From the NCBI GenBank assembly GCA_945947035.1, contig CAMEXD010000005.1, positions 3,122 to 67,121 on the forward strand: DNA of 64,000 nt. The letters run 5' to 3'. This DNA is from an uncultured Mycoplasma sp. (GTDB lineage Bacteria > Bacillota_I > Bacilli_A > RF39 > UBA660). Shown piece after piece: positions 12,079-43,699 of this stretch (the stretch's first letter is position 1; every line of letters starts with the position of its first letter). Position numbers and translations under genes: made by a program. A model generated the notes under the pieces. The model had not been told where the DNA came from. It was given only the letters and a program-made list of their open reading frames with translations, and made no database searches.

Positions 12079-12960
12079 TTATTTATCATAATTAATAGTT
12101 TCAAGTATTCTATTTAAATCTTGATCATTAGCAAAATTAATAATAAGTTTATTATTAGTAAGTTTTACTTTTGTACCTAAATAATCAGATAATTCTTTTT
12201 CTAAGTCTATATATTCTCTTGATTTTTGTTTTTGCTCTACTTTATGTCTTCTTGGAATATCAGAATTTCTTGTTAATTCTTCAAGTTCTCTTACACTTAA
12301 ATTTTCATTTTCAATCTTATTTGTCAATTCAATTATCTTATTTTCATCATCTAATTTTGATAAGACTCTTGCGTGTCCCATAGTTAATTTATTTTCAGAA
12401 ATTGATTTTTTAACAACATCAGGTAGTGTTAAAAGACCTAAAAGATTAGTGATATGGCTTCTACTTTTATTAACTCTTTTAGCAACTTGTTCTTGAGTTA
12501 AGTTAAGCTTATACATAAGATTTTTATAAGCATTTGCTTCTTCAATAACATTTAAATTTTCTCTTTGAAGATTTTCTAAAATTGCTATTTCCATCATTTC
12601 TTCATCAGTAAAGTTTCTAATAATCGCAGGTATTGTTTCTTTTCCTGCTCTTATTGAAGCACGATATCTTCTTTCTCCTGCAACGATGTCATAACCTTTA
12701 ATACTTTTTTTAACAATAATTGGTTGAAATACACCATGTTCTTTTATTGATTCAGCAAGTTCTTCTAAAGCATCCTCATCAAATACTTTTCTTGGTTGAT
12801 ATGGGTTTGGTCTTAAATCTTTGATTGGAAGTTCTTTAACTTCATCAATACGTGCTGTTTCCATAATTTTTTCTTCTAAGTTGCTATAACTTACATCTTC
12901 AATATTAAATAATTCTTCAAGCCCTCTTCCTAGAGCTTTTCTTTTACTCTGTTCTTGCAT
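12079..12960 (-). CDS. parB: chromosome partitioning protein ParB/Spo0J
   Basis: N-terminal KALGRGLEELF, ParB box GERRYRAS, and a ParB-type HTH segment NKSRSHITNLLGLLTLP...TMGHARVL. Confidence 0.93.
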   Translation of the reverse strand: MQEQSKRKALGRGLEELFNIEDVSYSNLEEKIMETARIDEVKELPIKDLRPNPYQPRKVFDEDALEELAESIKEHGVFQPIIVKKSIKGYDIVAGERRYRASIRAGKETIPAIIRNFTDEEMMEIAILENLQRENLNVIEEANAYKNLMYKLNLTQEQVAKRVNKSRSHITNLLGLLTLPDVVKKSISENKLTMGHARVLSKLDDENKIIELTNKIENENLSVRELEELTRNSDIPRRHKVEQKQKSREYIDLEKELSDYLGTKVKLTNNKLIINFANDQDLNRILETINYDK

Positions 12961-13735
12961 TTTTTTCTATCACCTCTTTGGCTAAATTTAAATAAGCTTC
13001 AGAACCTCTACTTTTTGGATCGTAAACAATTATTGGTTTACCATGAGATGGAGCTTCTGTTAGTCTTATTAATCTTGGTATTATAGTATTGTATACTTTA
13101 TCTTTAAAGTATTTTCTTATATCCTCAACTACTTCAATACTCATGTTAGTTCTTGCATCAAACATTGTAAGAAGTACTCCTTCAATTGAAAGATTTGGAT
13201 TAAGATTTTCTCTTGTATACATAATTGCTTTTAAAAGTTGTGTAATACCTTCAAGAGCAAAAAACTCACATTGTACTGGAATAATAACAGAATCACTTGA
13301 AGTTAAAGCATTTGTTGTAATAATTCCAAGTGCAGGTGGACAATCAATAATAATAAAATCATAGTCATCTTTTATCTTATCAATATGAATTTTTAATTGT
13401 TCAGCTTGAAGATAACTAGAATCATTTCTACTGTTGTCTCTTATTTCTATATCAATACCTGCTAAATTAATATTAGCGGGTAAAACATATAAATTTTTAT
13501 ATTTTGTTTTAATAATAACATCTTCAATTTCACTAGTATTATTTAAAACATTATAAATACTTTTATCAATATCACCTTTATTGATACCAATTCCTGTTGT
13601 AGCATTACATTGTGGATCTAAATCTACTAATAATACTTTTTTATTTAATATAGCTAGTGAAGCAGCAAGATTAATACTTGTTGTTGTTTTGCCTACTCCA
13701 CCTTTTTGATTAATCAATGATATAACTTTTCCCAT
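12944..13735 (-). CDS. parA: chromosome partitioning ATPase ParA/Soj
   Basis: Deviant Walker A motif NQKGGVGKTTTSINLA. Overlaps the parB start. Confidence 0.95.
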   Translation of the reverse strand: MGKVISLINQKGGVGKTTTSINLAASLAILNKKVLLVDLDPQCNATTGIGINKGDIDKSIYNVLNNTSEIEDVIIKTKYKNLYVLPANINLAGIDIEIRDNSRNDSSYLQAEQLKIHIDKIKDDYDFIIIDCPPALGIITTNALTSSDSVIIPVQCEFFALEGITQLLKAIMYTRENLNPNLSIEGVLLTMFDARTNMSIEVVEDIRKYFKDKVYNTIIPRLIRLTEAPSHGKPIIVYDPKSRGSEAYLNLAKEVIEKNARTE

Positions 13736-13842: not shown

Positions 13843-15078
13843 TTATCCCACATTTTTCTTATTTTTATCAATTTTTATTACAATTTGGTAAACGTTATCA
13901 AAGTCAAATTCTTCAGTTTCTATATTAAATCCAAATTTTTCAGTATTTTGAATAGCTTGTCTAAAATTATTAATAGCAAATCTCATATCGTAAATATCGT
14001 TATTATTAATAGTATTTACACTAGGTGTTTCAGTTACTACTTCAGGAATAGGTTGTTCTACTTTTTCACTATTATTTAATAAAGATTCTATCTTATTAAA
14101 TGCAGTATAAGCATTTTGATCACTATTATTACTTGTAAATTCATATTTTGGACCTTCATATTTAGGAACAGGTGCAACACTTTCTTCAACATGTTTTAAT
14201 TCATTAGATGTTGGAATATATGTGTTTTCTAAAATATCCTTATAAGGATCTTTTGGTAAATCTAAATCTTCATTTTGTTTTTGTTCAACTTGTTCAATAT
14301 CATCTTTTCTTAAATCAGCAAAAATATTTTTATTTATTGGTTTTTTTTCTGGTTCCTGATTAACAGGTGCAACAACTTTTGGTTCTACTACTATTTCTTT
14401 TACTTCATTTACATTTGGCACTTCAACATTTTTTGTTGGAACTTCTTCTTCTGGATATGTATTAGTATTTACTTTGCCAGTTAACATAGCAATCTCATCA
14501 TCAAGTTGCTTTACAGTCATTCTTTGAAGAATAATTTTTTCCAATAATTCTTTTTGTTTTACAGGATCTTCCATATTAAGTAAACTTCTAGCATGTCTTT
14601 CTGATATTTTTTCATGTAAAAGCGCATCTTGTACTTCAGGAATAAGATTTAAAAGTCTAAGTTTATTAGCAATGGCAGATTGTGATTTACCTAATGTTTT
14701 AGCAAGTTCTTCTTGAGTTAAATTATCTAATTTTAAAATTGTTTGATAGGTTCTTGCTTCTTCAATAGAAGTTAAATTCTTTCTCTGTAAATTTTCTAAA
14801 AGTGCAACTTTAGCAGCTTCTTTATCATCTATATTTCTAACAATCGCTGGAATAGTTGTTTTACCTGCAAGTTGTGAAGCACGAAATCTTCTTTCGCCTG
14901 CAACAATTTCGTATTTATCTCCTACTTTTCTAACAATAATAGGTTGAATAACACCATGTTCTTTAATTGATGTTGATAACTCTTGTAAATCAATATCATC
15001 AAACTTTTCACGTGGTTGAAATCTATTTGGTAGAACATCCGCTAATGATAGTTCAAATACTTCCTTTTCTAAGTTCAT
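13843..15078 (-). CDS. noc: Noc-type ParB paralogue (nucleoid occlusion protein) with a long internal low-complexity insert
   Basis: VLPNRFQPR and GERRFRAS boxes. The HTH reads LGKSQSAIANKLRLL...ISERHARSL, which matches B. subtilis Noc rather than Spo0J. The C-terminus FNIETEEFDFDNVYQIVIKI is Noc-like. About 165 aa of P/E/V/N-rich insert lies at ~13986-14481. An in-frame TGA sits just upstream of the ATG. Confidence 0.85.
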   Translation of the reverse strand: MNLEKEVFELSLADVLPNRFQPREKFDDIDLQELSTSIKEHGVIQPIIVRKVGDKYEIVAGERRFRASQLAGKTTIPAIVRNIDDKEAAKVALLENLQRKNLTSIEEARTYQTILKLDNLTQEELAKTLGKSQSAIANKLRLLNLIPEVQDALLHEKISERHARSLLNMEDPVKQKELLEKIILQRMTVKQLDDEIAMLTGKVNTNTYPEEEVPTKNVEVPNVNEVKEIVVEPKVVAPVNQEPEKKPINKNIFADLRKDDIEQVEQKQNEDLDLPKDPYKDILENTYIPTSNELKHVEESVAPVPKYEGPKYEFTSNNSDQNAYTAFNKIESLLNNSEKVEQPIPEVVTETPSVNTINNNDIYDMRFAINNFRQAIQNTEKFGFNIETEEFDFDNVYQIVIKIDKNKKNVG

Positions 15079-15679: not shown

Positions 15680-17587
15680 CTATTCATTTGTAATTACAAG
15701 ACGAACGCTATAGCTCCTGATAGCGTTACCGATTGTGGAGTTAAAGTAGAAAACCCCTGCACTAGTAGATTGGCTATAGTAACCTCCGCGTAAGAACCAA
15801 GGATAGCTAGAATTAACGAAGTTAGCACTATCACTATACCAGTTTTTTGTTTCCGTAAGTGCATGTTGTAAGTTTGAATTGGTATAATTTGTACTTGTTG
15901 TATAACTATTATAATATTTAGAATCTGGATATGCTACTCCATCATACGTACTACTACAATCTCTTCCCAAGCATCCACTAAATCCTGAATTATCTGTTGA
16001 ACTATATCCAGACCAGTTTTGTGTCCCATCTGTATATACGCCCATTACATATTCATATGCTCCACCACTCATATCATATACGCCATAGATATTTCCTGTT
16101 GTTGATGCATCTTTTCCTAAGTCTGTATTATATGTCCCATTTGTTACTGATTTACTACTTCCTGCAGGAGCACCATATCCTGTTATATAACTGCTACTAT
16201 TATTTATTCCAACTTCAGTACAACTTGTACTACTTGTACATCTTCCATAGATACTTTGAGTTAGATATGCTACTGCTCCCCATTCATTATTTTTCATCAT
16301 ATGGGTATCAAGTGTTGTGTCTTTTGTTTTATCAAACCCAAAACTATTTCCTGTTTGACTCATACTTAAACTTGCATAAAAGAAATTACTTACATCATTA
16401 TTGCTTAATGATTTTACATTTGGTTTTATTATTATTCCATTTGCATTACTACAGGTATCACTTGTACATCCTAAATTATTTTCTGTTATACTACTTGATA
16501 ATGTATTATGACTTGTTTCAAACTTGCCTACCCAAAATCCATTTAAGTTTTGTGTTCCAAATGTGAATGCATCATGAGCACTTGTTTTATTATCGACAAA
16601 GGTTATATCAAATGCTCCAGGAGCACTTTTAGTTCCTCCATTATAATTTGCTGTATCACCTGTTGCACTAAATCTTGGTATCCATACCCACATTGTATTT
16701 ATATCATCCATACTTATTTCTGTTCCTAAAGATGCATTTAAATAAGTATCTCTATTTGTTTCACTTACTGTTACTGCATTAGCCCACATTTTACTATTAT
16801 AATCATACCACTTATAACTTGAATTACTATTTGAACTATCTGCTTTTTTCCATACTTCATTTGTTTCATCATAATATACTGGAATCATATTTGTTGCAAG
16901 CTCTGGAGCATTAGCCCCATTTGTATTTGGTTCTTTTACAACTAAATTACTATCTGTTGCTACTACTTTTATTTTAAATGAAAATGTTTCACTTGTTGTT
17001 TGATTACTATGACTTGTTCCATTTGAACTATCTGTTATTGGCAAGTCATAGTTTTCATCTATCCATGCTTTTACTACATAGTTATTTGTTTGAACGCCTG
17101 TTAAACTATCTTGAGTTATAACATGACTATCTAAATAACCTTCTATACTTTTATTTTTATAACTTGATATAAGATTTCCTTTATTTTCTGTGAATCCATT
17201 TGCTACAGTACCATTTTTAGTCATATATATTTTTATATAATCTTCTTTTAGTGTTGCACCTTCATTTATTTCTACTAAACCTATAGCATAATTTACTGTT
17301 GCTTGGCCTATAATATCACTTGATACACTAAATTCTAAGGTACTATTAGAATCTGGATTTGCTAGCCCTTGTTCATCTGTTTCTGCATACCTATTTGTTA
17401 ATCTTATATTATTTGTTTCGTTAAAATTAACAACAATCTGTCCTGTTGTTATTACGTTTTCTTTGGTTCCTGTCCCAGTAAAGACATAAGCAGCATAACT
17501 TATTCCTACAACCATTGCCATTAAAGCAACTACAAATATACCTATTAGTATACTTTTGTATTTTTTTTTAAAAAAATCTTTTCGCAT
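15680..17587 (-). CDS. secreted or surface protein: SipW-type signal plus TasA-like module fused to an FGE-sulfatase/C-type-lectin-like domain
   Basis: 635 aa. The N-terminal 210 aa are paralogous to the ORF at 55658-56332 (AAYVFTGTGTKENVITTG; ENYDLPITDSSNGTSHSNQTTSETFSFKIKV). The C-terminal part has an FGE-sulfatase-like pattern (GFWVGKFETS, NNEWGAVAYL, GNIYGVYDMSGGAYEYVMG, WFLRGGYY, YSVRLVI). Confidence 0.6.
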   Translation of the reverse strand: MRKDFFKKKYKSILIGIFVVALMAMVVGISYAAYVFTGTGTKENVITTGQIVVNFNETNNIRLTNRYAETDEQGLANPDSNSTLEFSVSSDIIGQATVNYAIGLVEINEGATLKEDYIKIYMTKNGTVANGFTENKGNLISSYKNKSIEGYLDSHVITQDSLTGVQTNNYVVKAWIDENYDLPITDSSNGTSHSNQTTSETFSFKIKVVATDSNLVVKEPNTNGANAPELATNMIPVYYDETNEVWKKADSSNSNSSYKWYDYNSKMWANAVTVSETNRDTYLNASLGTEISMDDINTMWVWIPRFSATGDTANYNGGTKSAPGAFDITFVDNKTSAHDAFTFGTQNLNGFWVGKFETSHNTLSSSITENNLGCTSDTCSNANGIIIKPNVKSLSNNDVSNFFYASLSMSQTGNSFGFDKTKDTTLDTHMMKNNEWGAVAYLTQSIYGRCTSSTSCTEVGINNSSSYITGYGAPAGSSKSVTNGTYNTDLGKDASTTGNIYGVYDMSGGAYEYVMGVYTDGTQNWSGYSSTDNSGFSGCLGRDCSSTYDGVAYPDSKYYNSYTTSTNYTNSNLQHALTETKNWYSDSANFVNSSYPWFLRGGYYSQSTSAGVFYFNSTIGNAIRSYSVRLVITNE

Positions 17588-19913: not shown

Positions 19914-20270
19914 ATGCCAAGTGGTAGACCAAAAGGCGGTACAAATAAATACTGGTCACCAGAGGAAAAAGAAAAGATAGTCTTATATCATATAGAAAAT
20001 GAAATTGGTATGGACAAATGTGCAAAAAAATTTGGTATTTCTAGAGTGCAAATGTTTAATTGGGTTTCTTCATATAGAAATAAAGGAATAGAAGGTTTAA
20101 AGAACAAAAAGAAACCTGGTAATCCATTAAGTAAATATTCAGGTAAAAAGAATTTATCTGAAATGGAAAAACTTCAATATGAAAACATGAAATTAAGAAT
20201 TGAGAATGAACGATTAAAAAAAGGATACCTAGTGAAAGGAGATGGTTCAATTGTAGTATTCAAGAAATAA
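19914..20270 (+). CDS. IS3 transposase OrfA (HTH)
   Basis: 118 aa with an HTH region and a leucine-zipper-like LQYENMKLRIENERLKKG. The slippery A AAA AAG lies at 20216-20223. Confidence 0.85.
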   Translation: MPSGRPKGGTNKYWSPEEKEKIVLYHIENEIGMDKCAKKFGISRVQMFNWVSSYRNKGIEGLKNKKKPGNPLSKYSGKKNLSEMEKLQYENMKLRIENERLKKGYLVKGDGSIVVFKK

Positions 20271-21160
20271 AACAAAAAGAATTTGAAATCGTAGAAATAT
20301 TAAGTAAAGAATATTCAGTTAAATCATTATGTGAAGTAATGAATATATCAAGAAGTGACTATTATAAATGGTTAAAAAATAAGGAAATATTAAATAAATA
20401 TGAAATAAACCGTAGAGATTTAGAACCATTAATTAGGGATATTCATAAAAGAAAACCAAGTTATGGTTATCATAGAATAAATTACCTTATTCGTAAAGAA
20501 ACCGGTTGGGTTGTATCTGATAATTTAGTTCATAAAGTTTGCAAAATATTAAAAATAAGAAGTAAAGCAAGACACTATTCAATTTATAAGAAGCCTGGAG
20601 AAGAATCTATTAAATATCCAAATCTTATTAATAATAATTGGAATACTACGAGACCATTAGAAAAAATAACATCGGATACAACAATGATTTGGTTTAAAAA
20701 GCAAAGATATGATTGGACATATTATGTTGATGCATTTGATGATTCAATAATAGGTTCAGATGTTAAACCTTTCTATCATGGAGTTAGTATAACTAACCAT
20801 AGATTAGCTTTAGAGGATATGTTAAAAAGTAAAATAAAAAGAGGATATAAAAGCCAAGAAACTATTTTTCACTCAGATCAAGGCGCAATATATTCCTCAG
20901 TGGCATTTAATAATGCACATAAAGATTATAACATAACTAGGTCCATGTCGAGAATAGGAACTCCAACAGACAATCCAATAATTGAATCTAAAAATGGTTG
21001 GTTAAAGAAAGAAATGTATATTGATTTTAATCAAGATGATTATGAAACTGTTGAAGATTATATAAATGCAATAATATATGACCATAATTATTTAAGACCT
21101 AGTTATGCACTAAATTATAAAACCCCAATTGAATATAGAACTCAACTAGGGTTTCAATAA
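20216..21160 (+). CDS. IS3 transposase OrfB (DDE/rve), made as an OrfAB fusion by -1 frameshift
   Basis: The -1 frame is open from the A7G site through the listed ORF 20339-21160. DDE integrase core (HSDQGAIYSS ... PIIESKNGWLKKE). Confidence 0.8.
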   Translation, partial: KKRIPSERRWFNCSIQEIKQKEFEIVEILSKEYSVKSLCEVMNISRSDYYKWLKNKEILNKYEINRRDLEPLIRDIHKRKPSYGYHRINYLIRKETGWVVSDNLVHKVCKILKIRSKARHYSIYKKPGEESIKYPNLINNNWNTTRPLEKITSDTTMIWFKKQRYDWTYYVDAFDDSIIGSDVKPFYHGVSITNHRLALEDMLKSKIKRGYKSQETIFHSDQGAIYSSVAFNNAHKDYNITRSMSRIGTPTDNPIIESKNGWLKKEMYIDFNQDDYETVEDYINAIIYDHNYLRPSYALNYKTPIEYRTQLGFQ

Positions 21161-27576: not shown

Positions 27577-27622
27577 AAATACCTCCAAAATATCAAAAAT
27601 CCACTTTTAAAAAAAGCGGATA

Positions 27623-27748
27623 CTATTTTGATAATTGTTTTCTACCTTTAGATCTTCTTCTATTAACAATGCCTGATTTCATACGTGAAAAGAATCCATG
27701 TTTTTTATTCTTTCTACGATTATTTGGTTGAAAAGTTCCTTTTTTCAT
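27623..27748 (-). CDS. rpmH: 50S ribosomal protein L34
   Basis: [23 protein letters not shown]...[22 protein letters not shown]. The listed ORF has a spurious N-terminal extension. Confidence 0.93.
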
Positions 27749-28183
27749 CTTGCACCTCCAAACTAATTCGTTATTATTATAATGAATTAATAGGGTAGTT
27801 GTCAACTTTTTTTGTTAATTTATTTTTTTTTATCCAATTTATTAACATAATTAAAACTTTTATTTTTAATATTAACAAACAAATTAACAATATATTGTTA
27901 ATAACTTACTTAGTTTTATCCTTATTTTATAATGGTTTTCAAAACTTTTTAACAAAATTAACAATTTTAATATTAACAAAAGTAACAGTTGTTAAAAATA
28001 TTAATAACTTTTTTGTTGAAATTTGTTAAAAACTAATTTACAATATATAAACAAAAGAAAAAAGTGGTTAATAACTTTGTTAATAAGCTTGTTAATAAAA
28101 ATTTGCTATTTAATTTTTTAACAATTTGTATTACAATTAATTTAGGTTTTGAAAAAAAATATTAGCGGGGGAAGTGGTATTTA
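27749..28183. promoter_or_regulatory. oriC left part / dnaA promoter region with clustered DnaA-box-like 9-mers
   Basis: Located between rpmH and dnaA. Repeated TGTTAATAA / TTATTAACA 9-mers (7/9 match to TTATCCACA) at about 27839, 27895, 28077 and 28089, plus near-copies. TTATCCAAT at 27831. Confidence 0.7.
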
Positions 28184-29554
28184 ATGAATGATAAAACTAT
28201 TTGGTTAAAAACATTAGATAATATCAAGAATATTCTTGATCCATTACCATTTAATACCTGGTTTTCTCCGATTGAATTTTTAGATATTAAAGACGAAAAA
28301 TTAAGACTTGTTGTTCCTTATATATTATATAAAGAACATATTGAAAAAAATTATAAAGATTTAATTTTAGAAAATATTAACAAATTTGTTAATAACTCCG
28401 TTAAAGAAGTTAGTTTTATTTTAAAGGATAATTTAGATTCTATTATTAAAGAAGAATTAGAGATTAAAGAGGAAAAGATTGAAAATAATTATGAAAATGA
28501 ATCACATATTAATTTTAAATCTAATTTAAATAAGAGTTATACTTTTTCTAACTTTGTTGTTGGTGAATCAAATAAATTTGCTCAAGCTGCAGCATTAGCA
28601 GTTGCTGAAAATCCTGGTACTATGTATAATCCTTTATTTATATATGGTAATAGTGGACTTGGTAAAACGCATCTTATGCATGCGATAGGTAATTATATTG
28701 AAGAAAAACAACATAAAAAGGTTTTATATGTAACTTGTGATCAATTTTTAGAAGACTTTATGGGTTTATCTAGAAAAAATAATAGTGATAATTTTGATTA
28801 TATGGAAATTTTTAAAGAAAAATATCGTAATATTGATGTTCTAATAATCGATGATATTCAGTTTCTTGGTGGAGCAACTGCCTCCCAACAAGAGTTTTTC
28901 CACACTTTTAACAATCTTCACAACAATAGTAAACAAATTATTGTATCAAGTGATAGATCTCCAGAAGATTTAAAAGCTTTAGAAGATAGACTTAGAACAA
29001 GATTTTGTTGGGGATTACAAGTAGATATATCTCCACCTGATTTTGATTTGAAGGTTGCAATTTTAAAGAAAAAATTAAAAGGTGAAAAAATCGATTTAGA
29101 TGATGATATAATTATTTATATTGCTAGTAATGTAGGTAATGATATAAGACAACTTGAAGGTTCTTTAACAAGACTTGTTGCTTATTCTTGTATTATGGGT
29201 GAAACTAAGCCAAACGTTGAATTTGCTATGGAAGCACTAAAGGACTTCACTAAAAAACCTGTTACTGATCAAAACAATATAAGAAGAATTCAAAAAAGTG
29301 TTGCTAACTTCTATAAAATAGCTTTTGAGGATATAAAATCTAAAAAAAGGCCTCCAAATATAGCAATACCAAGACAAGTTGCAATGTATTTATGTAGAAA
29401 ATTAACAGATGAACCATTTGAACGTATTGGTATTGAATTTGGTGGAAAAAATCATGCTACTGTAATGCACTCTTGTAATAAAATTGAAAGAGAGTTAAAA
29501 AATAATAAAGAATTACAAGAAGCAATTACTGCAATTGAAAAAGAATTAAGATAA
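28184..29554 (+). CDS. dnaA: chromosomal replication initiator DnaA
   Basis: AAA+ motif GNSGLGKTHLMHA and C-terminal domain IV (IAIPRQVAMYLCRKLTD...GGKNHATVMHSCNKI). Confidence 0.98.
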   Translation: MNDKTIWLKTLDNIKNILDPLPFNTWFSPIEFLDIKDEKLRLVVPYILYKEHIEKNYKDLILENINKFVNNSVKEVSFILKDNLDSIIKEELEIKEEKIENNYENESHINFKSNLNKSYTFSNFVVGESNKFAQAAALAVAENPGTMYNPLFIYGNSGLGKTHLMHAIGNYIEEKQHKKVLYVTCDQFLEDFMGLSRKNNSDNFDYMEIFKEKYRNIDVLIIDDIQFLGGATASQQEFFHTFNNLHNNSKQIIVSSDRSPEDLKALEDRLRTRFCWGLQVDISPPDFDLKVAILKKKLKGEKIDLDDDIIIYIASNVGNDIRQLEGSLTRLVAYSCIMGETKPNVEFAMEALKDFTKKPVTDQNNIRRIQKSVANFYKIAFEDIKSKKRPPNIAIPRQVAMYLCRKLTDEPFERIGIEFGGKNHATVMHSCNKIERELKNNKELQEAITAIEKELR

Positions 29555-33716: not shown

Positions 33717-34172
33717 ATGAATTATGAAATTAATAGTGAAACTTTAGCACTTTTACCCATTGGTAAAAGTAAAACAAAAATACTAGAACAAACAAATAAT
33801 TATGTAATTAAAAAACCAATAACTGAAGTTTTAGATACGAGTTGTCATTATTTTGGCAGTAGTTTTAAAGGTAGAGTAGAAGGAACCAAAAATATGATTG
33901 GTTCTGTTTATAAAGTCCCAATAATTATTGAAGAATCAGCAAATATTATCTTTTTTCCAACTATGTCACCAGACTTAAAAAATAATATATGGGTATCATT
34001 AAATAATATTTTAAAATGTGAGCCAAATAATAATAAAACTATTATTTATTTTAAAAATAATAAAAAAATAGAAGTAAATGTTCCCTATTTATCGATTTCA
34101 AAACAAATTGTAAGATCTAATCTTTTAAAAACAATATCTACGAATAGAAAAATATTAAAAAACGAACAATAA
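33717..34172 (+). CDS. comK: ComK-family competence transcription factor
   Basis: YEINSETLALLP...SCHYFGSSFKGRVEGTKNMIG...KVPIIIEES.NIIFFPTMSP matches the ComK family pattern. Confidence 0.75.
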   Translation: MNYEINSETLALLPIGKSKTKILEQTNNYVIKKPITEVLDTSCHYFGSSFKGRVEGTKNMIGSVYKVPIIIEESANIIFFPTMSPDLKNNIWVSLNNILKCEPNNNKTIIYFKNNKKIEVNVPYLSISKQIVRSNLLKTISTNRKILKNEQ

Positions 34173-39777: not shown

Positions 39778-39793
39778 TGTTCCACGTGGAACA
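39778..39793. promoter_or_regulatory. parS: parS site 1 (perfect palindrome TGTTCCACGTGGAACA)
   Basis: Exact 16-mer, extended to the palindrome ACAATGTTCCACGTGGAACATTGT. Lies 11 nt after the gyrA stop. Confidence 0.85.
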
Positions 39794-39801
39794 TTGTATC
39801 T

Positions 39802-39850
39802 GGTCAATTGATGTATTAAAAACAAATCAATTGACCTTTATTTTTTTATT
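39802..39850 (+). terminator. gyrA intrinsic terminator
   Basis: GGTCAATTGAT-N13-ATCAATTGACC followed by TTTATTTTTTTATT. Confidence 0.8.
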
Positions 39851-39888
39851 TAATAAATAATATATAATGAAAAGTCAATCAAACATAA

Positions 39889-39904
39889 TGTTCCACGTGG
39901 AACA
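39889..39904. promoter_or_regulatory. parS: parS site 2
   Basis: Exact TGTTCCACGTGGAACA within the 20-bp palindrome AATGTTCCACGTGGAACATT. Confidence 0.85.
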
Positions 39905-39955
39905 TTATGTTATTATTTTAATTTAATATATAAGACAATTATAATTATGTGTCAA

Positions 39956-39971
39956 TGTTCCACGTGGAACA
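39956..39971. promoter_or_regulatory. parS: parS site 3
   Basis: Exact 16-mer. The extended palindrome is GTCAATGTTCCACGTGGAACATTGAC. Confidence 0.85.
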
Positions 39972-40061
39972 TTGACATTAAACTATTATTTATTAAGCTA
40001 TATTAATGTAATTTATTAGATTTATATATATAAAAATCAATTTAATGTTATTAAAGTATAA

Positions 40062-40077
40062 TGTTCCACGTGGAACA
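40062..40077. promoter_or_regulatory. parS: parS site 4
   Basis: Exact 16-mer within AATGTTCCACGTGGAACATT. Confidence 0.85.
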
Positions 40078-40097
40078 TTGAAATAAATATATTTTAT

Positions 40098-40126
40098 TTG
40101 ACAAATAATTAATAATAATATAGAAT
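40098..40126 (+). promoter_or_regulatory. sigma-A-type promoter of ffs
   Basis: TTGACA (40098-40103), a 17-nt spacer, then TAGAAT (40121-40126). The predicted start is about 40132-40134. Confidence 0.6.
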
Positions 40127-40132
40127 TTATAT

Positions 40133-40212
40133 TGTGCAACACAAATGTTAGAACCAGGTCAGAATCGGAAGATAGCAGCCTTAATAACCCCTTTGTGTGT
40201 GCACTTTTTTTT
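40133..40212 (+). ncRNA. ffs: small (4.5S-like, ~72 nt) signal recognition particle RNA with T-run
   Basis: Domain IV core ACCAGGUCAGAAUC-GGAA-GAUAGCAGCC matches the conserved SRP RNA motif (E. coli ACCAGGUCAGGUCCGGAAGGAAGCAGCC). The closing helix is GUGCAACACAAA / UUUGUGUGUGCAC, followed by T8. Confidence 0.85.
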
Positions 40213-40221
40213 GAGGTAATT

Positions 40222-40629
40222 ATGGAAGAAAAATACGTTGAAAAATTATTATTAAAATGCAAAAAAGCAATAAAAACAGGTAATATTCCTATAAGTGCAT
40301 TAATTGTAAAAAATAATAAAATTATATCAATTGCTTATAATAAAAAAGAAACTAGTAATATTTCACTAGATCATGCAGAAATTATTGCAATAAAAAAAGC
40401 TTGTAAAAAATTAAAGACTTGGAGATTAGATGATTGTGTATTATATACAACCTTAAAACCATGCAAAATGTGTGAAGGTGCAATAATTGAATCTAGAATA
40501 AAAAAAGTATATTATTTATTAGAATCAAATTACTATAAAAATAATTATGATATATCTTATGAAAAATTAAAATTAAAAAATAATTATGATAAAATATTAA
40601 AAGATTTTTTTGCTAATATTAGAAAGTGA
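40222..40629 (+). CDS. tadA: tRNA-specific adenosine deaminase TadA
   Basis: CDA zinc motifs HAEIIAI and PCKMCEGAI. The start was set at MEEKYVE behind GAGGTAAT. The listed longer ORF (from 40132) runs through ffs. Confidence 0.9.
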   Translation: MEEKYVEKLLLKCKKAIKTGNIPISALIVKNNKIISIAYNKKETSNISLDHAEIIAIKKACKKLKTWRLDDCVLYTTLKPCKMCEGAIIESRIKKVYYLLESNYYKNNYDISYEKLKLKNNYDKILKDFFANIRK

Positions 40630-40632
40630 CAA

Positions 40633-40648
40633 TGTTCCACGTGGAACA
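40633..40648. promoter_or_regulatory. parS: parS site 5
   Basis: Exact TGTTCCACGTGGAACA, 4 nt after the tadA stop. Confidence 0.85.
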
Positions 40649-40722
40649 TTGAAAATTACACAATAGTTAACAAGTTCCGAAAAGTGTGCTATCAATACAA
40701 AAAGGTGGAGATAATCGCCAAT

Positions 40723-40738
40723 TATTTCCCGGGAAATA
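40723..40738. promoter_or_regulatory. NBS-like site 1 (TATTTCCCGGGAAATA)
   Basis: Exact match to the palindromic Noc-binding site (core ATTTCCCGGGAAAT). Sits within the 22-bp palindrome AATTATTTCCCGGGAAATAATT. Confidence 0.75.
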
Positions 40739-41024
40739 ATTTTTGCTATATTAAAATGCTTTAATATATAAAATAATGATTTTAAAAAAATAAAATTTTA
40801 ATAGTTAATATTAACATATCAATATAAAATAATAATATGTTATTTTAAAATTATTTGTTTATATTTTTAAATTTTTTGCTATGTTAACAATAATGTTATT
40901 TTAGATGTTATAGGTATTATAAATTCTAATTTATTAATATTTATAATTTAAAAACAATTAACTAAATGCTAACAAGTTCTAAAAAATGTGTTGTCAATAC
41001 AAAAAAGTGGACAAAATCGCCAAT

Positions 41025-41040
41025 TATTTCCCGGGAAATA
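41025..41040. promoter_or_regulatory. NBS-like site 2
   Basis: Exact TATTTCCCGGGAAATA, 302 bp after site 1. Confidence 0.75.
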
Positions 41041-41300
41041 ATTTTTATTATAAATTGATTATATTTTAATTAATGCTTTTTTATATTATTATTGTTAATA
41101 AAAATGTACAATACTATATAAACATTAAAATAATAATTACAGCTTTAGATCAAAATTAAACTGCCTATTATTTATTCAATAAAATTAACATTGATTTTTG
41201 CTATATTAACTATAGTTAATTTTAAAAAAGCAATTAACCAATTGCTAATAAATTCTAAAAAATGTATTGACAATACAAAAAAGTGGAGAAAATTGCCAAT

Positions 41301-41316
41301 TATTTCCCGGGAAATA
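41301..41316. promoter_or_regulatory. NBS-like site 3
   Basis: Exact TATTTCCCGGGAAATA, 276 bp after site 2. Confidence 0.75.
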
Positions 41317-41560
41317 ATTTTTGCTGGGAAAATATATAATAAATATTAAAAAATATTAATAACAATAATTAATGTATATATACAAAATGGTTATTAATTA
41401 ATATTACAAATATTAATTGTTATTGATGTATTATAAACTATCTTATTTACTAAAATATTGTTATAAAATGAAGCTTTATAATTTTAAAATTAATTAGCTA
41501 AATGTTAACAGATTCTAAAAAATGTATTGACAATACAAAAAAGTGGAGAAAATCGCCAAT

Positions 41561-41576
41561 TATTTCCCGGGAAATA
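41561..41576. promoter_or_regulatory. NBS-like site 4
   Basis: Exact TATTTCCCGGGAAATA, 260 bp after site 3. Confidence 0.75.
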
Positions 41577-41855
41577 ATTTTTGCTAGGGAAATATTTTAA
41601 TATTTAAAGTATTGGTTTGAAAAAATTGATTTTATTTAATAGTTAATATCAATATAAAATAATAATATTTTATTTTAAAATTATTTGTTTATATTCTTAA
41701 ATATTTTATTATGTTAACAATAATGATATTTTAGACATTATACATATTATAAATTCTAAATTATTGATATTTATAAATCAAAATTTAATTAACCAAATGT
41801 TAATATGTTCTAAAAAATGTATTGACAATACAAAAAAGTGGAGAAAATTGCCAAT

Positions 41856-41871
41856 TATTTCCCGGGAAATA
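41856..41871. promoter_or_regulatory. NBS-like site 5
   Basis: Exact TATTTCCCGGGAAATA, 295 bp after site 4 and about 100 bp upstream of dnaX. Confidence 0.75.
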
Positions 41872-41971
41872 ATTTTTGCTAAAAAAAATATAATTTAAAT
41901 ATAAATCTTATTTTATTTTAATTCTTTTAATGATATAATATTTATATGTTGATTTTTGAAGGGGGGATAAA

Positions 41972-43699
41972 ATGAGTTATCTTGCTTTATATCGTAAATA
42001 TAGACCACAAACTTTTGAAGAGGTTGTTGGTCAAAATAAAATAATAAAAGTATTAGAAAATTCAATAAATAATGATATGGTTTCTCATGCATATCTGTTT
42101 TCAGGACCAAGAGGAACGGGTAAAACAACAACTGCAAAATTAATTGCAAAGCTTATTAACTGTGAAAATAGATCTGGACTTAATCCTTGTAATGAATGTG
42201 AAAGCTGTGTTTCATTTAATAATAAAAATAATCCAGACATAATAGAAATAGATGCTGCATCAAACAATGGTGTTGATGAAATTAGAGAAATAAAGGAAAA
42301 AGTTGATCTTATGCCAGCTATTTCTAAATATAAAGTTTATATAATAGATGAAGTTCATATGTTATCTATTGGTGCCTTTAATGCACTTTTAAAGACTTTA
42401 GAAGAACCACCAAAACACGTAATATTTATTTTGGCGACTACTGAATTTTATAAAGTACCAGAAACAATAGTTTCAAGATGTCAATGTTTTAGTTTTGAAC
42501 GTATTGAAGAATTTAATATTGTAAAAAAATTAAAAGAAATAGTTGAAAAAGAAAAAATTAATGTACCTATAAGCGTATTAGAATTAATTGCAGAATATTC
42601 AGATGGAGGCTTACGTGATGCAATTAACATGTTAGATAAACTAATATGTTCTAGTGATGAAATAACAGAAGATGATTTTTACGAAATCAGAGGATTAACT
42701 AAAAAAGAAGATTTAGAAAAGATAGTTTTAGATATTAAAGAAAATAAAATAAAAGAATTATTTGATAGAATTGATGAGTTAAACAAAAAAGGCAAAAATT
42801 TAATTATATTTTCTGAAGAATTAATGTCTTATTTTAAGGACTTATTAATAAAAATAGTTTCTGGAGAAAATGAGATATTAACAAAAAATGAAATATACCA
42901 ATCAATTGATATAATAAACGAAACTATTAATAATATGAAAAATAGTAGTTTTCCTAAAATAATATTAGAAGTTGGATTATTAAAAATAATGGATTCATTA
43001 AAAAATAAAGAAGATAATATAGAAAAAACAAAAAAAGAAACAACCAATGTTAACAATATAGAAAAAAACAATACTGTTTCTGATTTAAATAAAGAAGAAG
43101 AAATAGCAAAGCCAATTAATTTAATAAAAGAAAAATCAATATATGTTGAAGATGGTAAGATAAAATTTGAAGAAGCAAAAGAAATAAAAGAAAAAATAAC
43201 AAAATTAACTGAGCAAATAGAAAAAAATAGAAAAATAAGAATTAATAACACTTTTGCTACTGCTGATAAAAACATATTGGAAACCATGAAAATTAATTGG
43301 AATCTAATAAATAATTATTCAATTGATAAAAAATATGCTTCTGTTTGTTCTTATTTAATAGATGGAAACTTAAAAGTTGCAGGTAATGATTATATTATCG
43401 TGTCATTACTCTATAGTTCACTTTTAAAAAATGCTTTAGTAAATATTGAAAAAATAGAAGAATTATTGGAAAAGGTAATGAATCATCATTATAAAATTGC
43501 TTTTATACTAGAGGATGAGTGGATAAAATTAAAAGAAGAATATATTGAAAATTTAAAATCTGGAAAAAAATATGAGTTGCAAGAAGAAGAAAATATTGAT
43601 TATAATAATGAAGAAAACAAATTAATAAGTAAGGAAAAAAGTGAAATAGTTCAAGAAGCAGAAGATTTGTTTGGAAATGATATTATAGAAATAAAATAA
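41972..43699 (+). CDS. dnaX: DNA polymerase III subunits gamma/tau
   Basis: YRKYRPQTFEEVVGQ, GPRGTGKTTTAK, a zinc module CNECESC, DEVHMLS and SRCQCF. RBS GAAGGGGGG. Confidence 0.96.
   Translation: MSYLALYRKYRPQTFEEVVGQNKIIKVLENSINNDMVSHAYLFSGPRGTGKTTTAKLIAKLINCENRSGLNPCNECESCVSFNNKNNPDIIEIDAASNNGVDEIREIKEKVDLMPAISKYKVYIIDEVHMLSIGAFNALLKTLEEPPKHVIFILATTEFYKVPETIVSRCQCFSFERIEEFNIVKKLKEIVEKEKINVPISVLELIAEYSDGGLRDAINMLDKLICSSDEITEDDFYEIRGLTKKEDLEKIVLDIKENKIKELFDRIDELNKKGKNLIIFSEELMSYFKDLLIKIVSGENEILTKNEIYQSIDIINETINNMKNSSFPKIILEVGLLKIMDSLKNKEDNIEKTKKETTNVNNIEKNNTVSDLNKEEEIAKPINLIKEKSIYVEDGKIKFEEAKEIKEKITKLTEQIEKNRKIRINNTFATADKNILETMKINWNLINNYSIDKKYASVCSYLIDGNLKVAGNDYIIVSLLYSSLLKNALVNIEKIEELLEKVMNHHYKIAFILEDEWIKLKEEYIENLKSGKKYELQEEENIDYNNEENKLISKEKSEIVQEAEDLFGNDIIEIK

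Follow-up and report, generated by a model that had tools for sequence, protein, structure and literature searches.

Noc is the standard example of a duplicated ParB that has gained a new DNA specificity together with a new job, membrane-coupled nucleoid occlusion, in which it binds its sites, spreads with CTP and keeps division from occurring over the nucleoid. In the founding Noc studies, to our knowledge, the N-terminal membrane helix was kept in all homologues examined and the binding sites were described as scattered. For ParB itself, eight origin-proximal parS sites are present in B. subtilis and multi-parS clusters in Corynebacterium and Myxococcus. A further member of the family is the plasmid-borne KorB with its OB sites, a ParB-family CTP clamp with no partition role, which has KorA as partner and represses promoters. 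The Noc system of B. subtilis and its Noc-binding sites (NBSs) have been characterised in several studies (Wu et al. 2009; Adams et al. 2015, PMC4331003; Jalal et al. 2020, PMC7383237; Jalal et al. 2021, PMC8429893), according to which about 70 NBSs are scattered over most of the chromosome (PMC4331003). The region near the terminus is described as free of them. Specificity for the NBS is determined by few residues, as Q173 and R201 with a lysine at 179 and/or 184 suffice (Jalal et al. 2020, PMC7383237), while an N-terminal amphipathic helix (residues ~1-14) is required for membrane binding and function of Noc (PMC4331003).

The locus described here belongs to a 64-kb window from an uncultured low-GC Bacilli genome, the whole stretch of DNA that was analysed, in which sites of both the Noc and the ParB type are found close to the origin. 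The relevant features are listed below by window coordinates and strand; sites and oriC carry no strand.

12079..12960, minus strand: parB, 293 aa, predicted binder of the five parS sites
12944..13735, minus strand: ParA/Soj-type partition ATPase gene, assigned at family level only, below the NCBIfam cut-offs
13843..15078, minus strand: gene of the Noc-type ParB paralogue, 411 aa, predicted binder of the five NBSs
27589..28183, no strand: rnpA-dnaA intergenic region with the GC-skew switch, approximate oriC
39778..39793, no strand: parS site 1, perfect TGTTCCACGTGGAACA, directly past the gyrA stop codon
39889..39904, no strand: parS site 2, perfect TGTTCCACGTGGAACA, 0 mismatches
39956..39971, no strand: parS site 3, perfect TGTTCCACGTGGAACA, 0 mismatches
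40062..40077, no strand: parS site 4, perfect TGTTCCACGTGGAACA, just upstream of the ffs promoter
40123..40221, plus strand: ffs, small bacterial SRP RNA (RF00169, 59.9 bits against a gathering score of 40)
40222..40629, plus strand: tadA, tRNA adenosine(34) deaminase, 135 aa, ATG start (NF008113, 85.1 bits, E 4.6e-24, under the curated cut-off of 150; the orthologue in the close relative L001 is likewise 135 aa long)
40633..40648, no strand: parS site 5, perfect TGTTCCACGTGGAACA, 4 nt past the tadA stop and 75 nt before NBS 1
40660..41880, plus strand: tandem array of five units of 260-302 bp, from unit alignment
40720..40741, no strand: NBS 1 (16-mer 40723-40738), perfect 22-nt palindrome AATTATTTCCCGGGAAATAATT
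41022..41043, no strand: NBS 2 (16-mer 41025-41040), perfect palindrome
41298..41319, no strand: NBS 3 (16-mer 41301-41316), perfect palindrome
41558..41579, no strand: NBS 4 (16-mer 41561-41576), perfect palindrome
41853..41874, no strand: NBS 5 (16-mer 41856-41871), ~100 nt upstream of the dnaX start
41972..43699, plus strand: dnaX, DNA polymerase III gamma/tau subunit (NF004046, 498 bits)

In a scan of the window, the 16-mer TATTTCCCGGGAAATA was found five times with 0 mismatches each, starting at 40723, 41025, 41301, 41561 and 41856, which gives start-to-start spacings of 302, 276, 260 and 295 bp and agrees with the five copies and the 260-302-bp period reported in the first-pass annotation of this DNA. 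The same annotation had equated the 16-mer with the B. subtilis NBS, and it indeed agrees, letter for letter, with the core of the oligo GGATATTTCCCGGGAAATATCC employed for Noc of B. subtilis (PMC8429893). It had also seen no further copy, and no sixth match exists across the 64 kb at up to 2 mismatches, a threshold at which 0.01 matches are expected by chance; a 14-mer scanned at 3 mismatches gave one extra match, at 54796, which corresponds to the chance level. The density of NBSs is, thus, five in 1.2 kb and zero in the remaining 63 kb. Every copy is centred in the perfect 22-nt palindrome AATTATTTCCCGGGAAATAATT, identical at 22 of 22 positions in all five. The array is located between tadA and dnaX, as had been noted, and since the GC skew reaches its minimum at ~28 kb, beside dnaA (28184-29554), the array lies 12.5-13.7 kb from oriC, close to the 12-13.5 kb given before. 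Tandem sites beside parS and close to oriC differ from the ~70 spread sites of B. subtilis (PMC4331003), so that the arrangement had rightly been called unlike that of B. subtilis; in the literature, no earlier description was found of NBS arrays next to parS, nor of a helix-less Noc.

Five perfect parS sites are located within 950 bp upstream of the NBS array, while 0.08 would be expected by chance in the window. Because they directly precede the NBSs, the gyrA-ffs-tadA-dnaX interval is a combined parS/NBS region, ~12-14 kb from oriC, and with these predicted sites what looked like a lone Noc array becomes a region shared by ParB and Noc sites. The ParB encoded in the window displays the parS-type residues R173 and G201, and its N-terminus bears an LGRGL motif. 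With parS near oriC, a ParB carrying R173 and G201 and parA adjacent to its gene, the window has what defines a chromosomal ParABS centromere. Like the origin-proximal parS clusters of known ParABS systems, it holds several perfect palindromic sites for loading of ParB-family clamps within a few kb near oriC, together with parA and parB. In contrast to those clusters, the parS sites are accompanied here by another group of sites, predicted to serve a paralogue of different specificity, and the two groups alternate site by site in some relatives. The parS cluster (39778-40648) does not appear in the account of the first-pass annotation.

A Noc-type ParB paralogue had been recognised in the window from the start, and this assignment is backed by structure comparison: Noc provides its best PDB matches (7NG0, 1.7e-59; 7OL9), with Spo0J behind. 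According to the translation and the alignment to Noc structures, its specificity residues are Q173, K179, N184 and R201, of which position 184 is a nearly invariant lysine in characterised Noc proteins; the combination Q-K-N-R is shared by 112 of its 120 closest homologues. Against the NCBIfam model TIGR04285 (nucleoid_noc) the paralogue scores 294 bits, below the cut-off of 315, with the best stretch covering profile positions 1-204 of 255, and the ParB of the window scores lower, 240 bits. Both CTP motifs are intact, AGERRFRAS as the GERRxRA box and LLENLQRKNL as ENLQR. The B. subtilis system and the present one share an identical 16-bp NBS, a ParB-derived paralogue with Q173, K179, R201, GERR and ENLQR and a Noc-like C-terminal domain, and the position of its gene in an rsmG-noc-parA-parB neighbourhood. 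The paralogue differs from B. subtilis Noc by the absence of the N-terminal amphipathic membrane helix and of helix alpha-2, by an inserted disordered linker of ~150 aa with the motif NIFxxLR, and by asparagine in place of lysine at position 184.

The five palindromes, situated beside a ParB centromere, are probably loading sites for this Noc-type paralogue, which is encoded 26 kb away. By analogy with B. subtilis Noc, a Noc dimer would read each 16-bp NBS via its helix-turn-helix, with Q173 reading adenine 1, R201 reading cytosine 6 and K179 serving as the permissive lysine. Contact with the NBS would then induce the dimer to take up CTP and to close its N-terminal gate, and the closed clamp would slide away, leaving the NBS free for the next round of loading. 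As sliding would free the site for reloading, five sites within 1.2 kb should cover the ffs-tadA-dnaX region densely with Noc. The five adjoining perfect parS sites would afford the same dense loading for ParB, and ParB and Noc together may form one two-protein complex at the side of the origin, 12-14 kb from oriC.

The same layout is encountered in related genomes. Two close relatives, L001 and L004 (DnaX 82% and 77% identical), carry three to five parS and two NBSs in the same intergenic regions, with an invariant palindrome and diverged flanks; since NBSs occur at the same place there, the array is more than a single-strain peculiarity. Among 105 low-GC genome pieces that contain the 20-mer, 101 carry origin-region genes of the window, as compared to the ~4% that sites scattered through a 1.5-Mb genome would give, a confinement to the origin that is derived from 8-kb pieces selected for the palindrome with AT flanks. 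An independent metagenome scan yielded 81 origin-proximal pieces among 98 bearing the palindrome, and ~8 longer low-GC metagenome pieces have no recognisable origin genes. Slightly more than half of the NBS cores (111 of 214) are located between gyrA and dnaX, and 79 of 214 lie at most 100 bp from a parS site. The 36 complete gyrA-dnaX intervals contain 0-6 NBSs and 0-9 parS sites, and NBS copy number across relatives ranges from 0 to 7. On many related pieces, parS and NBS stand side by side or alternate, and alternating parS/NBS tandem units are found in the relatives L008, L200, L145 and L135. NBS spacing in relatives varies from ~60 to 400 bp, so the period of 260-302 bp is not a conserved feature.

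Within the array, each unit consists of a conserved block and an AT-rich spacer, the block comprising ~60 nt 5' of the palindrome, the palindrome itself and TTTTTGCT, in total ~95 nt across the five copies. The units are homologous throughout, spacers included (75-86% identical), with units 1 and 4 being the closest pair at 86%, and this indicates fairly recent duplications. Tandem duplication, as initially proposed, agrees with the homology of the units; the accompanying view of simply drifting spacers does not hold, as the spacers after copies 1 and 4 are still ~90% identical. The suggested selection on a ~72-nt core is not supported: across the wider group, conservation is limited to a palindrome of 22-24 bp, and the 5' flank AAAAAAGTGGAGAAAATCGCC was seen in the window, L001 and L004 alone. 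In a further metagenome scan, the lineage-specific flank together with the palindrome gave no match. Judged by this sequence comparison, the flank is lineage-specific, and Noc binding does not account for the conservation of its ~60 nt.

Such a unit structure could also result from neutral tandem duplication of a segment with one NBS, a minisatellite in which the copy number of five would be functionless. Homology of whole units, the 86% identity of units 1 and 4, the presence of only two copies in the close relatives and the range of 0 to 7 across relatives all fit this explanation, which is nevertheless unlikely, because the five palindromes are identical at 22 of 22 positions against spacers diverged to 75-86% and because this locus gave rise to clusters of several NBSs more than once, built from unrelated units with periods of ~60-400 bp. 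That such clusters keep emerging speaks for selection in favour of multiple sites.

If the palindromes are loading sites for Noc, the N-terminus of the paralogue bears on what the loaded protein may do. Its ParB-N domain begins at residue 6, residue 5 aligns with Noc residue 26 in G. thermoleovorans and with residue 28 in B. subtilis, and the open reading frame is already maximal, with no upstream extension possible. With its start aligned this far inside Noc, the protein has no N-terminal amphipathic membrane helix, and a short, helix-less N-terminus is common to 119 of the 120 closest homologues. This weighs against the membrane tethering of the origin, analogous to RacA/ram in B. subtilis sporulation, that the first-pass annotation had suggested. 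Classical nucleoid occlusion or tethering by Noc, in the manner of RacA/ram or of RicO/ricS in S. aureus, would draw on the presence of both NBSs and a Noc-type protein and on the known anchoring of origins by site-specific proteins in Bacilli, namely RacA and RicO, the latter of which anchors through a C-terminal amphipathic helix (bioRxiv 10.64898/2026.03.06.710092). It is nonetheless improbable, as in B. subtilis Noc a 10-residue N-terminal deletion abolishes membrane binding and function (PMC4331003), no alternative membrane-targeting sequence was recognised in the paralogue, where the NIFxxLR motif is short with acidic residues on both sides, and the GC-rich ram motif TGACGCCGGCGTCA was not found in the window at up to 3 mismatches. 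RacA/ram and RicO/ricS resemble the present locus in having multiple motif copies confined, here probably, to the origin-proximal region and a dedicated protein, here a predicted one, that binds the motif and organises or positions the origin. RacA and RicO, however, fall outside the ParB family of CTP clamps and attach DNA to the membrane or pole, and their sites extend over hundreds of kb, compared to 1-2 kb and no recognisable anchor here.

As a clamp loaded at the five palindromes, Noc would be expected to mark or organise the origin region, given that NBSs are concentrated around the origin in related genomes. The layout shared by relatives and the absence of the membrane anchor suggest that it probably marks the origin and does not guard the whole chromosome. 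We conjecture, thus, that Noc organises the origin region here and does not act in chromosome-wide nucleoid occlusion; its role at the origin could be in segregation, in insulation, or in replication or division control, with an output that possibly runs via the conserved NIFxxLR motif in the disordered linker. A more specific and clearly more tentative proposal is that in this uncultured Bacilli group with small genomes Noc may be a second, membrane-independent CTP clamp that works with ParB on adjacent or alternating parS/NBS arrays, forming a two-clamp centromere with NIFxxLR as output instead of a nucleoid occlusion system. A comparable case is KorB/OB, likewise a ParB-family CTP clamp with its own palindromic sites that acts on nearby DNA without a membrane helix; it differs in being plasmid-borne, in its partner KorA and in its repression of promoters.

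A large uncultured branch of the Bacilli keeps the NBS and the Noc-type recognition residues with the helix absent, and probably concentrates its sites at the origin, often tens of bp from parS. This would amount to a natural separation of the DNA-loading function of Noc from its membrane function and to a possible intermediate or alternative route in ParB-to-Noc evolution. The helix-less, origin-clustered Noc could be the ancestral state, preceding the membrane helix and the spread of sites, or could result from a later change of function. It would, at the same time, be a natural case of two distinct CTP clamps being loaded onto one short DNA segment, where each could act as a roadblock to the other, intermingle with it or insulate it.

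It was also considered that the palindromes are bound by another protein, either a dual-specificity ParB or an unrelated regulator, with the flank being a real element such as DnaA boxes or a promoter. On the minus strand, the flank reads TTCTCCACT or TTGTCCACT, a 7/9 match to the DnaA box; a perfect TTATCCACA occurs between NBS and parS in some relatives (L135), and perfect DnaA boxes are ~5-fold enriched within 45 bp of NBSs. This explanation is nevertheless quite improbable, as the ParB of the window carries the parS-specific R173 and G201, a Noc-type reader for the NBS is encoded in the same window, and the DnaA-box-like element has decayed in L001 and L004 and is missing from most other lineages, with no more than 13 loci showing one. 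Over the whole window, DnaA boxes occur at chance level, and a DnaA-box cluster in the array was rejected, with no enrichment in the window and a core match of only 7/9; on account of L135 it is retained as a side observation.

Very improbable is a row of small RNA genes or intrinsic terminators with the palindrome and T-run as hairpin and the flank as transcript body. Although TTTTT follows each of the five palindromes of the window, the fold of one copy is better than that of its shuffles (z = -2.6) and a weak minus-strand promoter-like TTGGCA-18-TATTGT abuts two copies, this was rejected because Rfam scans gave only ffs and no family match in the array even at E up to 1, three of four folds (two cores, both strands) were no better than shuffles (z ~0), the palindrome stem is almost all A-U with no call from a terminator scan, the T-run is gone in L001 (AATAATTTGGGTTGC) where the palindrome is still perfect, the wider group conserves the palindrome only, and the sequence is exactly the NBS and adjoins parS sites. 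A small peptide was likewise dismissed: an open reading frame of 30-52 aa runs through cores 2-5 (e.g. MLTDSKKCIDNTKKWRKSPIISREIIFAREIF), but it lacks a Shine-Dalgarno sequence, the frame does not stay open in copy 1, and L001 and L004 have either no such frame or an interrupted one. A plus-strand promoter with TTGACA in GTATTGACAATAC was discarded as well, there being no -10 element and the hexamer being unconserved in copies 1-2 and in relatives. On the minus strand, TTGGCR-18-TATTGT beside the palindrome is a possible weak promoter.

The five NBSs discussed here lie downstream of gyrA, together with parS sites, in the following arrangement:

39778, 39889, 39956 and 40062: parS sites 1-4, between gyrA and ffs
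40123-40221, + strand: ffs, the SRP RNA gene, upstream of tadA
40222-40629: tadA
40633: parS site 5, 4 nt past the tadA stop and 75 nt ahead of the first NBS
40723, 41025, 41301, 41561 and 41856: starts of the five NBSs, between tadA and dnaX
41972-43699: dnaX

All five NBSs are exact copies of the 16-mer TATTTCCCGGGAAATA, spaced by 302, 276, 260 and 295 bp, and each forms the middle of a 22-nt palindrome without any mismatch, AATTATTTCCCGGGAAATAATT. Biochemical work on B. subtilis Noc used an NBS oligonucleotide, GGATATTTCCCGGGAAATATCC, whose core matches this 16-mer exactly (PMC8429893), which bears out their identification as NBSs in the first-pass annotation. Even with up to two mismatches allowed, the 64-kb window contains no further copy (chance expectation 0.01), and the 14-mer core gives one extra window match at three mismatches, which is chance level. 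All NBSs of the window are confined to the tadA-dnaX array, with none inside dnaX or between psp1 and pth. That annotation had named the interval as tadA/ffs to dnaX, of which the position between tadA and dnaX is correct, while ffs lies upstream of tadA; its SRP RNA is of the small 4.5S-like and not of the large Bacillus type. With oriC at ~27.6-28.2 kb (GC-skew minimum and dnaA), the array is located 12.5-13.7 kb from the origin. The consensus parS, TGTTCCACGTGGAACA, is likewise present in five mismatch-free copies in the window (0.08 expected by chance), each inside an extended palindrome of 20-28 nt. This group (39778-40648), absent from the first-pass annotation, is the centromere cluster of the chromosome and adjoins the NBS array, the 2.1-kb stretch 39778-41874 carrying five perfect parS sites and then five perfect NBSs.

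The same layout is found in two close relatives of the source genome (uncultured Bacilli, 24% G+C). L001 (82% DnaX identity) has three parS sites and two NBSs, and L004 (77% DnaX identity) five parS sites, some with one mismatch, and two NBSs; in both, ffs-tadA is flanked by parS and the tadA-dnaX interval contains the NBS units. The NBS palindrome is invariant in both, its 5' flank is diverging yet recognisable, and the T-run 3' of the palindrome is lost in L001. A wider survey with the 20-mer ATTATTTCCCGGGAAATAAT against one genome per species gave at least 120 pieces, most of them from uncultured Bacilli or "Tenericutes" with a genomic G+C of 23-34%. Among the matches listed, 101 of 105 low-GC pieces carry origin-region genes of the window (dnaA-dnaN-recF-gyrB-gyrA-dnaX-recR-holB-pth-mfd or yidC-jag-mnmE-mnmG-rsmG-noc), where ~4% would be expected for a motif dispersed over a 1.5-Mb genome. 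The 214 NBS cores among these matches include 111 between gyrA and dnaX, 21 inside dnaX and 19 between psp1 and pth, and 79 have a parS within 100 bp; the 36 complete gyrA-dnaX intervals among them hold 0-6 NBSs and 0-9 parS sites. Many relatives, L006, L016, L020, L024, L029 and L035 among them, have a perfect NBS in the dnaX coding region. An independent 18-mer metagenome scan found origin genes on 81 of 98 low-GC pieces; of the remainder, several are short array-only contigs and about eight longer ones are not recognisably origin-proximal. Higher-GC Firmicutes matches (Listeria, Planococcus and others) lie mostly outside the origin region among the matches listed, which fits the classical scattered arrangement.

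In several lineages, both site types are even combined in tandem units, each pairing one parS with one NBS:

L008, a complete 1.52-Mb genome: six 126-bp units between gyrA and ffs
L200: five ~265-bp units, parS and the NBS palindrome 8 bp apart
L135 and L145: tandem units of one parS and one NBS

Extreme cases among the relatives are seven NBSs with a 62-bp period interleaved with parS (L007, 46-433) and four NBSs with a 75-bp period followed by ~13 parS-like sites with a 43-bp period (L069, 2163-3030).

Outward alignment from every NBS at all loci shows only five conserved positions beyond the 14-mer core, giving a ~24-bp consensus palindrome, AAATTATTTCCCGGGAAATAATTT. Apart from the window, the flank GGCGATTTTCTCCAC... 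turned up in L001 and L004 alone and is therefore lineage-specific; the selected ~72-nt core proposed earlier is not supported. Phased A-tracts could account for the flank, as could a decayed DnaA box or a weak promoter on the minus strand directly beside the palindrome. DnaA-box matches in the window cores reach only 7 of 9 positions; in low-GC loci, the 38.6 kb lying no more than 45 bp from an NBS hold 21 perfect boxes, against 140 in 1452 kb, a ~5-fold enrichment. In L135, a metagenome relative, the unit order is NBS, DnaA box, parS (340-390, 610-665, 1015-1070, 1435-1490); three units have the perfect box TTATCCACA and the remaining one has TAATCCACA.

The array units are homologous tandem duplicates (75-86% identical, units 1 and 4 being closest). 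Neutral duplication as the origin of the array explains neither the perfect palindromes within diverged spacers nor the repeated and independent rise of multi-site clusters at this one locus. Readings as small RNA, terminator or small peptide fail conservation, Rfam and folding tests. The NBS array is a real, conserved feature.

ParB, a ParA-type protein and a ParB paralogue are encoded in the window as follows:

12079-12960: ParB, 293 aa
12944-13735: ParA/Soj-type ATPase
13843-15078, - strand: Noc-type ParB paralogue, 411 aa

The best solved-structure matches of the paralogue are Noc proteins (G. thermoleovorans 7NG0 and 7NFU, ~1e-59; B. subtilis 7OL9), with Spo0J structures ranking behind. 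According to Jalal et al., NBS adenine 1 is read by Q173 and cytosine 6 by R201, and one lysine at 179 or 184 suffices to permit NBS reading (PMC7383237). At the four specificity positions, the paralogue has Q173, K179, N184 and R201 and the window ParB R, L, T and G; by this rule, the former is predicted to be NBS-specific and the latter parS-specific. The CTP motifs GERR and ENLQR are intact in the paralogue. Its ParB-N domain starts at residue 6, residue 5 aligning with Noc-chain residues 26-28; the N-terminal helix of characterised Noc is absent, and the ORF has no room to extend upstream. A ~150-aa low-complexity linker separates the DNA-binding domain from the Noc-like C-terminal domain, and the NCBIfam Noc model scores 294 bits, below its 315-bit cut-off. 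As judged from the 120 closest homologues (259-580 aa), these departures are family traits and not an artefact: exactly 16 residues precede the PNRFQPR motif in 119 and Q-K-N-R is present in 112. The disordered linker contains KNIFADLRK (~aa 250-258), and N-I-F-x-x-L-R, common to most homologues' otherwise unalignable linkers, may be a partner-binding peptide.

B. subtilis Noc neither binds the membrane nor functions once its first 10 residues are deleted, and all homologues examined at that time possessed the helix (PMC4331003). Membrane tethering of the RacA/ram kind, as initially suggested, is not supported for the paralogue, which lacks this defining helix; a ram motif was not found in the window either. 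The idea of a loading platform, by comparison, stands: the array most likely serves a helix-less Noc-type CTP clamp as a loading platform with several sites, placed beside the ParB centromere. From conserved residues of the paralogue, we infer that it would bind NBSs and behave as a clamp; together with ParB at its sites, it would form one combined origin-side nucleoprotein domain. Its biological role is conjecture; it may lie in organising the origin, in insulation, or in controlling segregation, replication or division, perhaps via the NIFxxLR motif. This NBS array with a helix-less Noc-type protein is a new variation on the Noc/NBS system; no description of NBS arrays adjoining parS or of a helix-less Noc family was found in the literature. 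In function, the nearest parallels are RacA/ram and RicO/ricS, the latter reported recently from S. aureus; RacA and RicO, however, serve as anchors and do not belong to the ParB family of clamps.

While noc directly follows rsmG in several relatives, both are parted in the window by a 635-aa ORF next to noc (15680-17587, - strand; no Pfam or NCBIfam match), rnr and, between rnr and rsmG, a probably IS3-like transposase ORF pair (19914-21160, + strand; HTH_Tnp_1/HTH_28, then an rve integrase core). A ComK-like ORF (33717-34172, + strand) between dnaN and recF keeps its position in many small-genome relatives, and a T-box leader (118 bits; 51592-51794, + strand) precedes two ORFs, one dUTPase-like and one for a class-I aminoacyl-tRNA synthetase.
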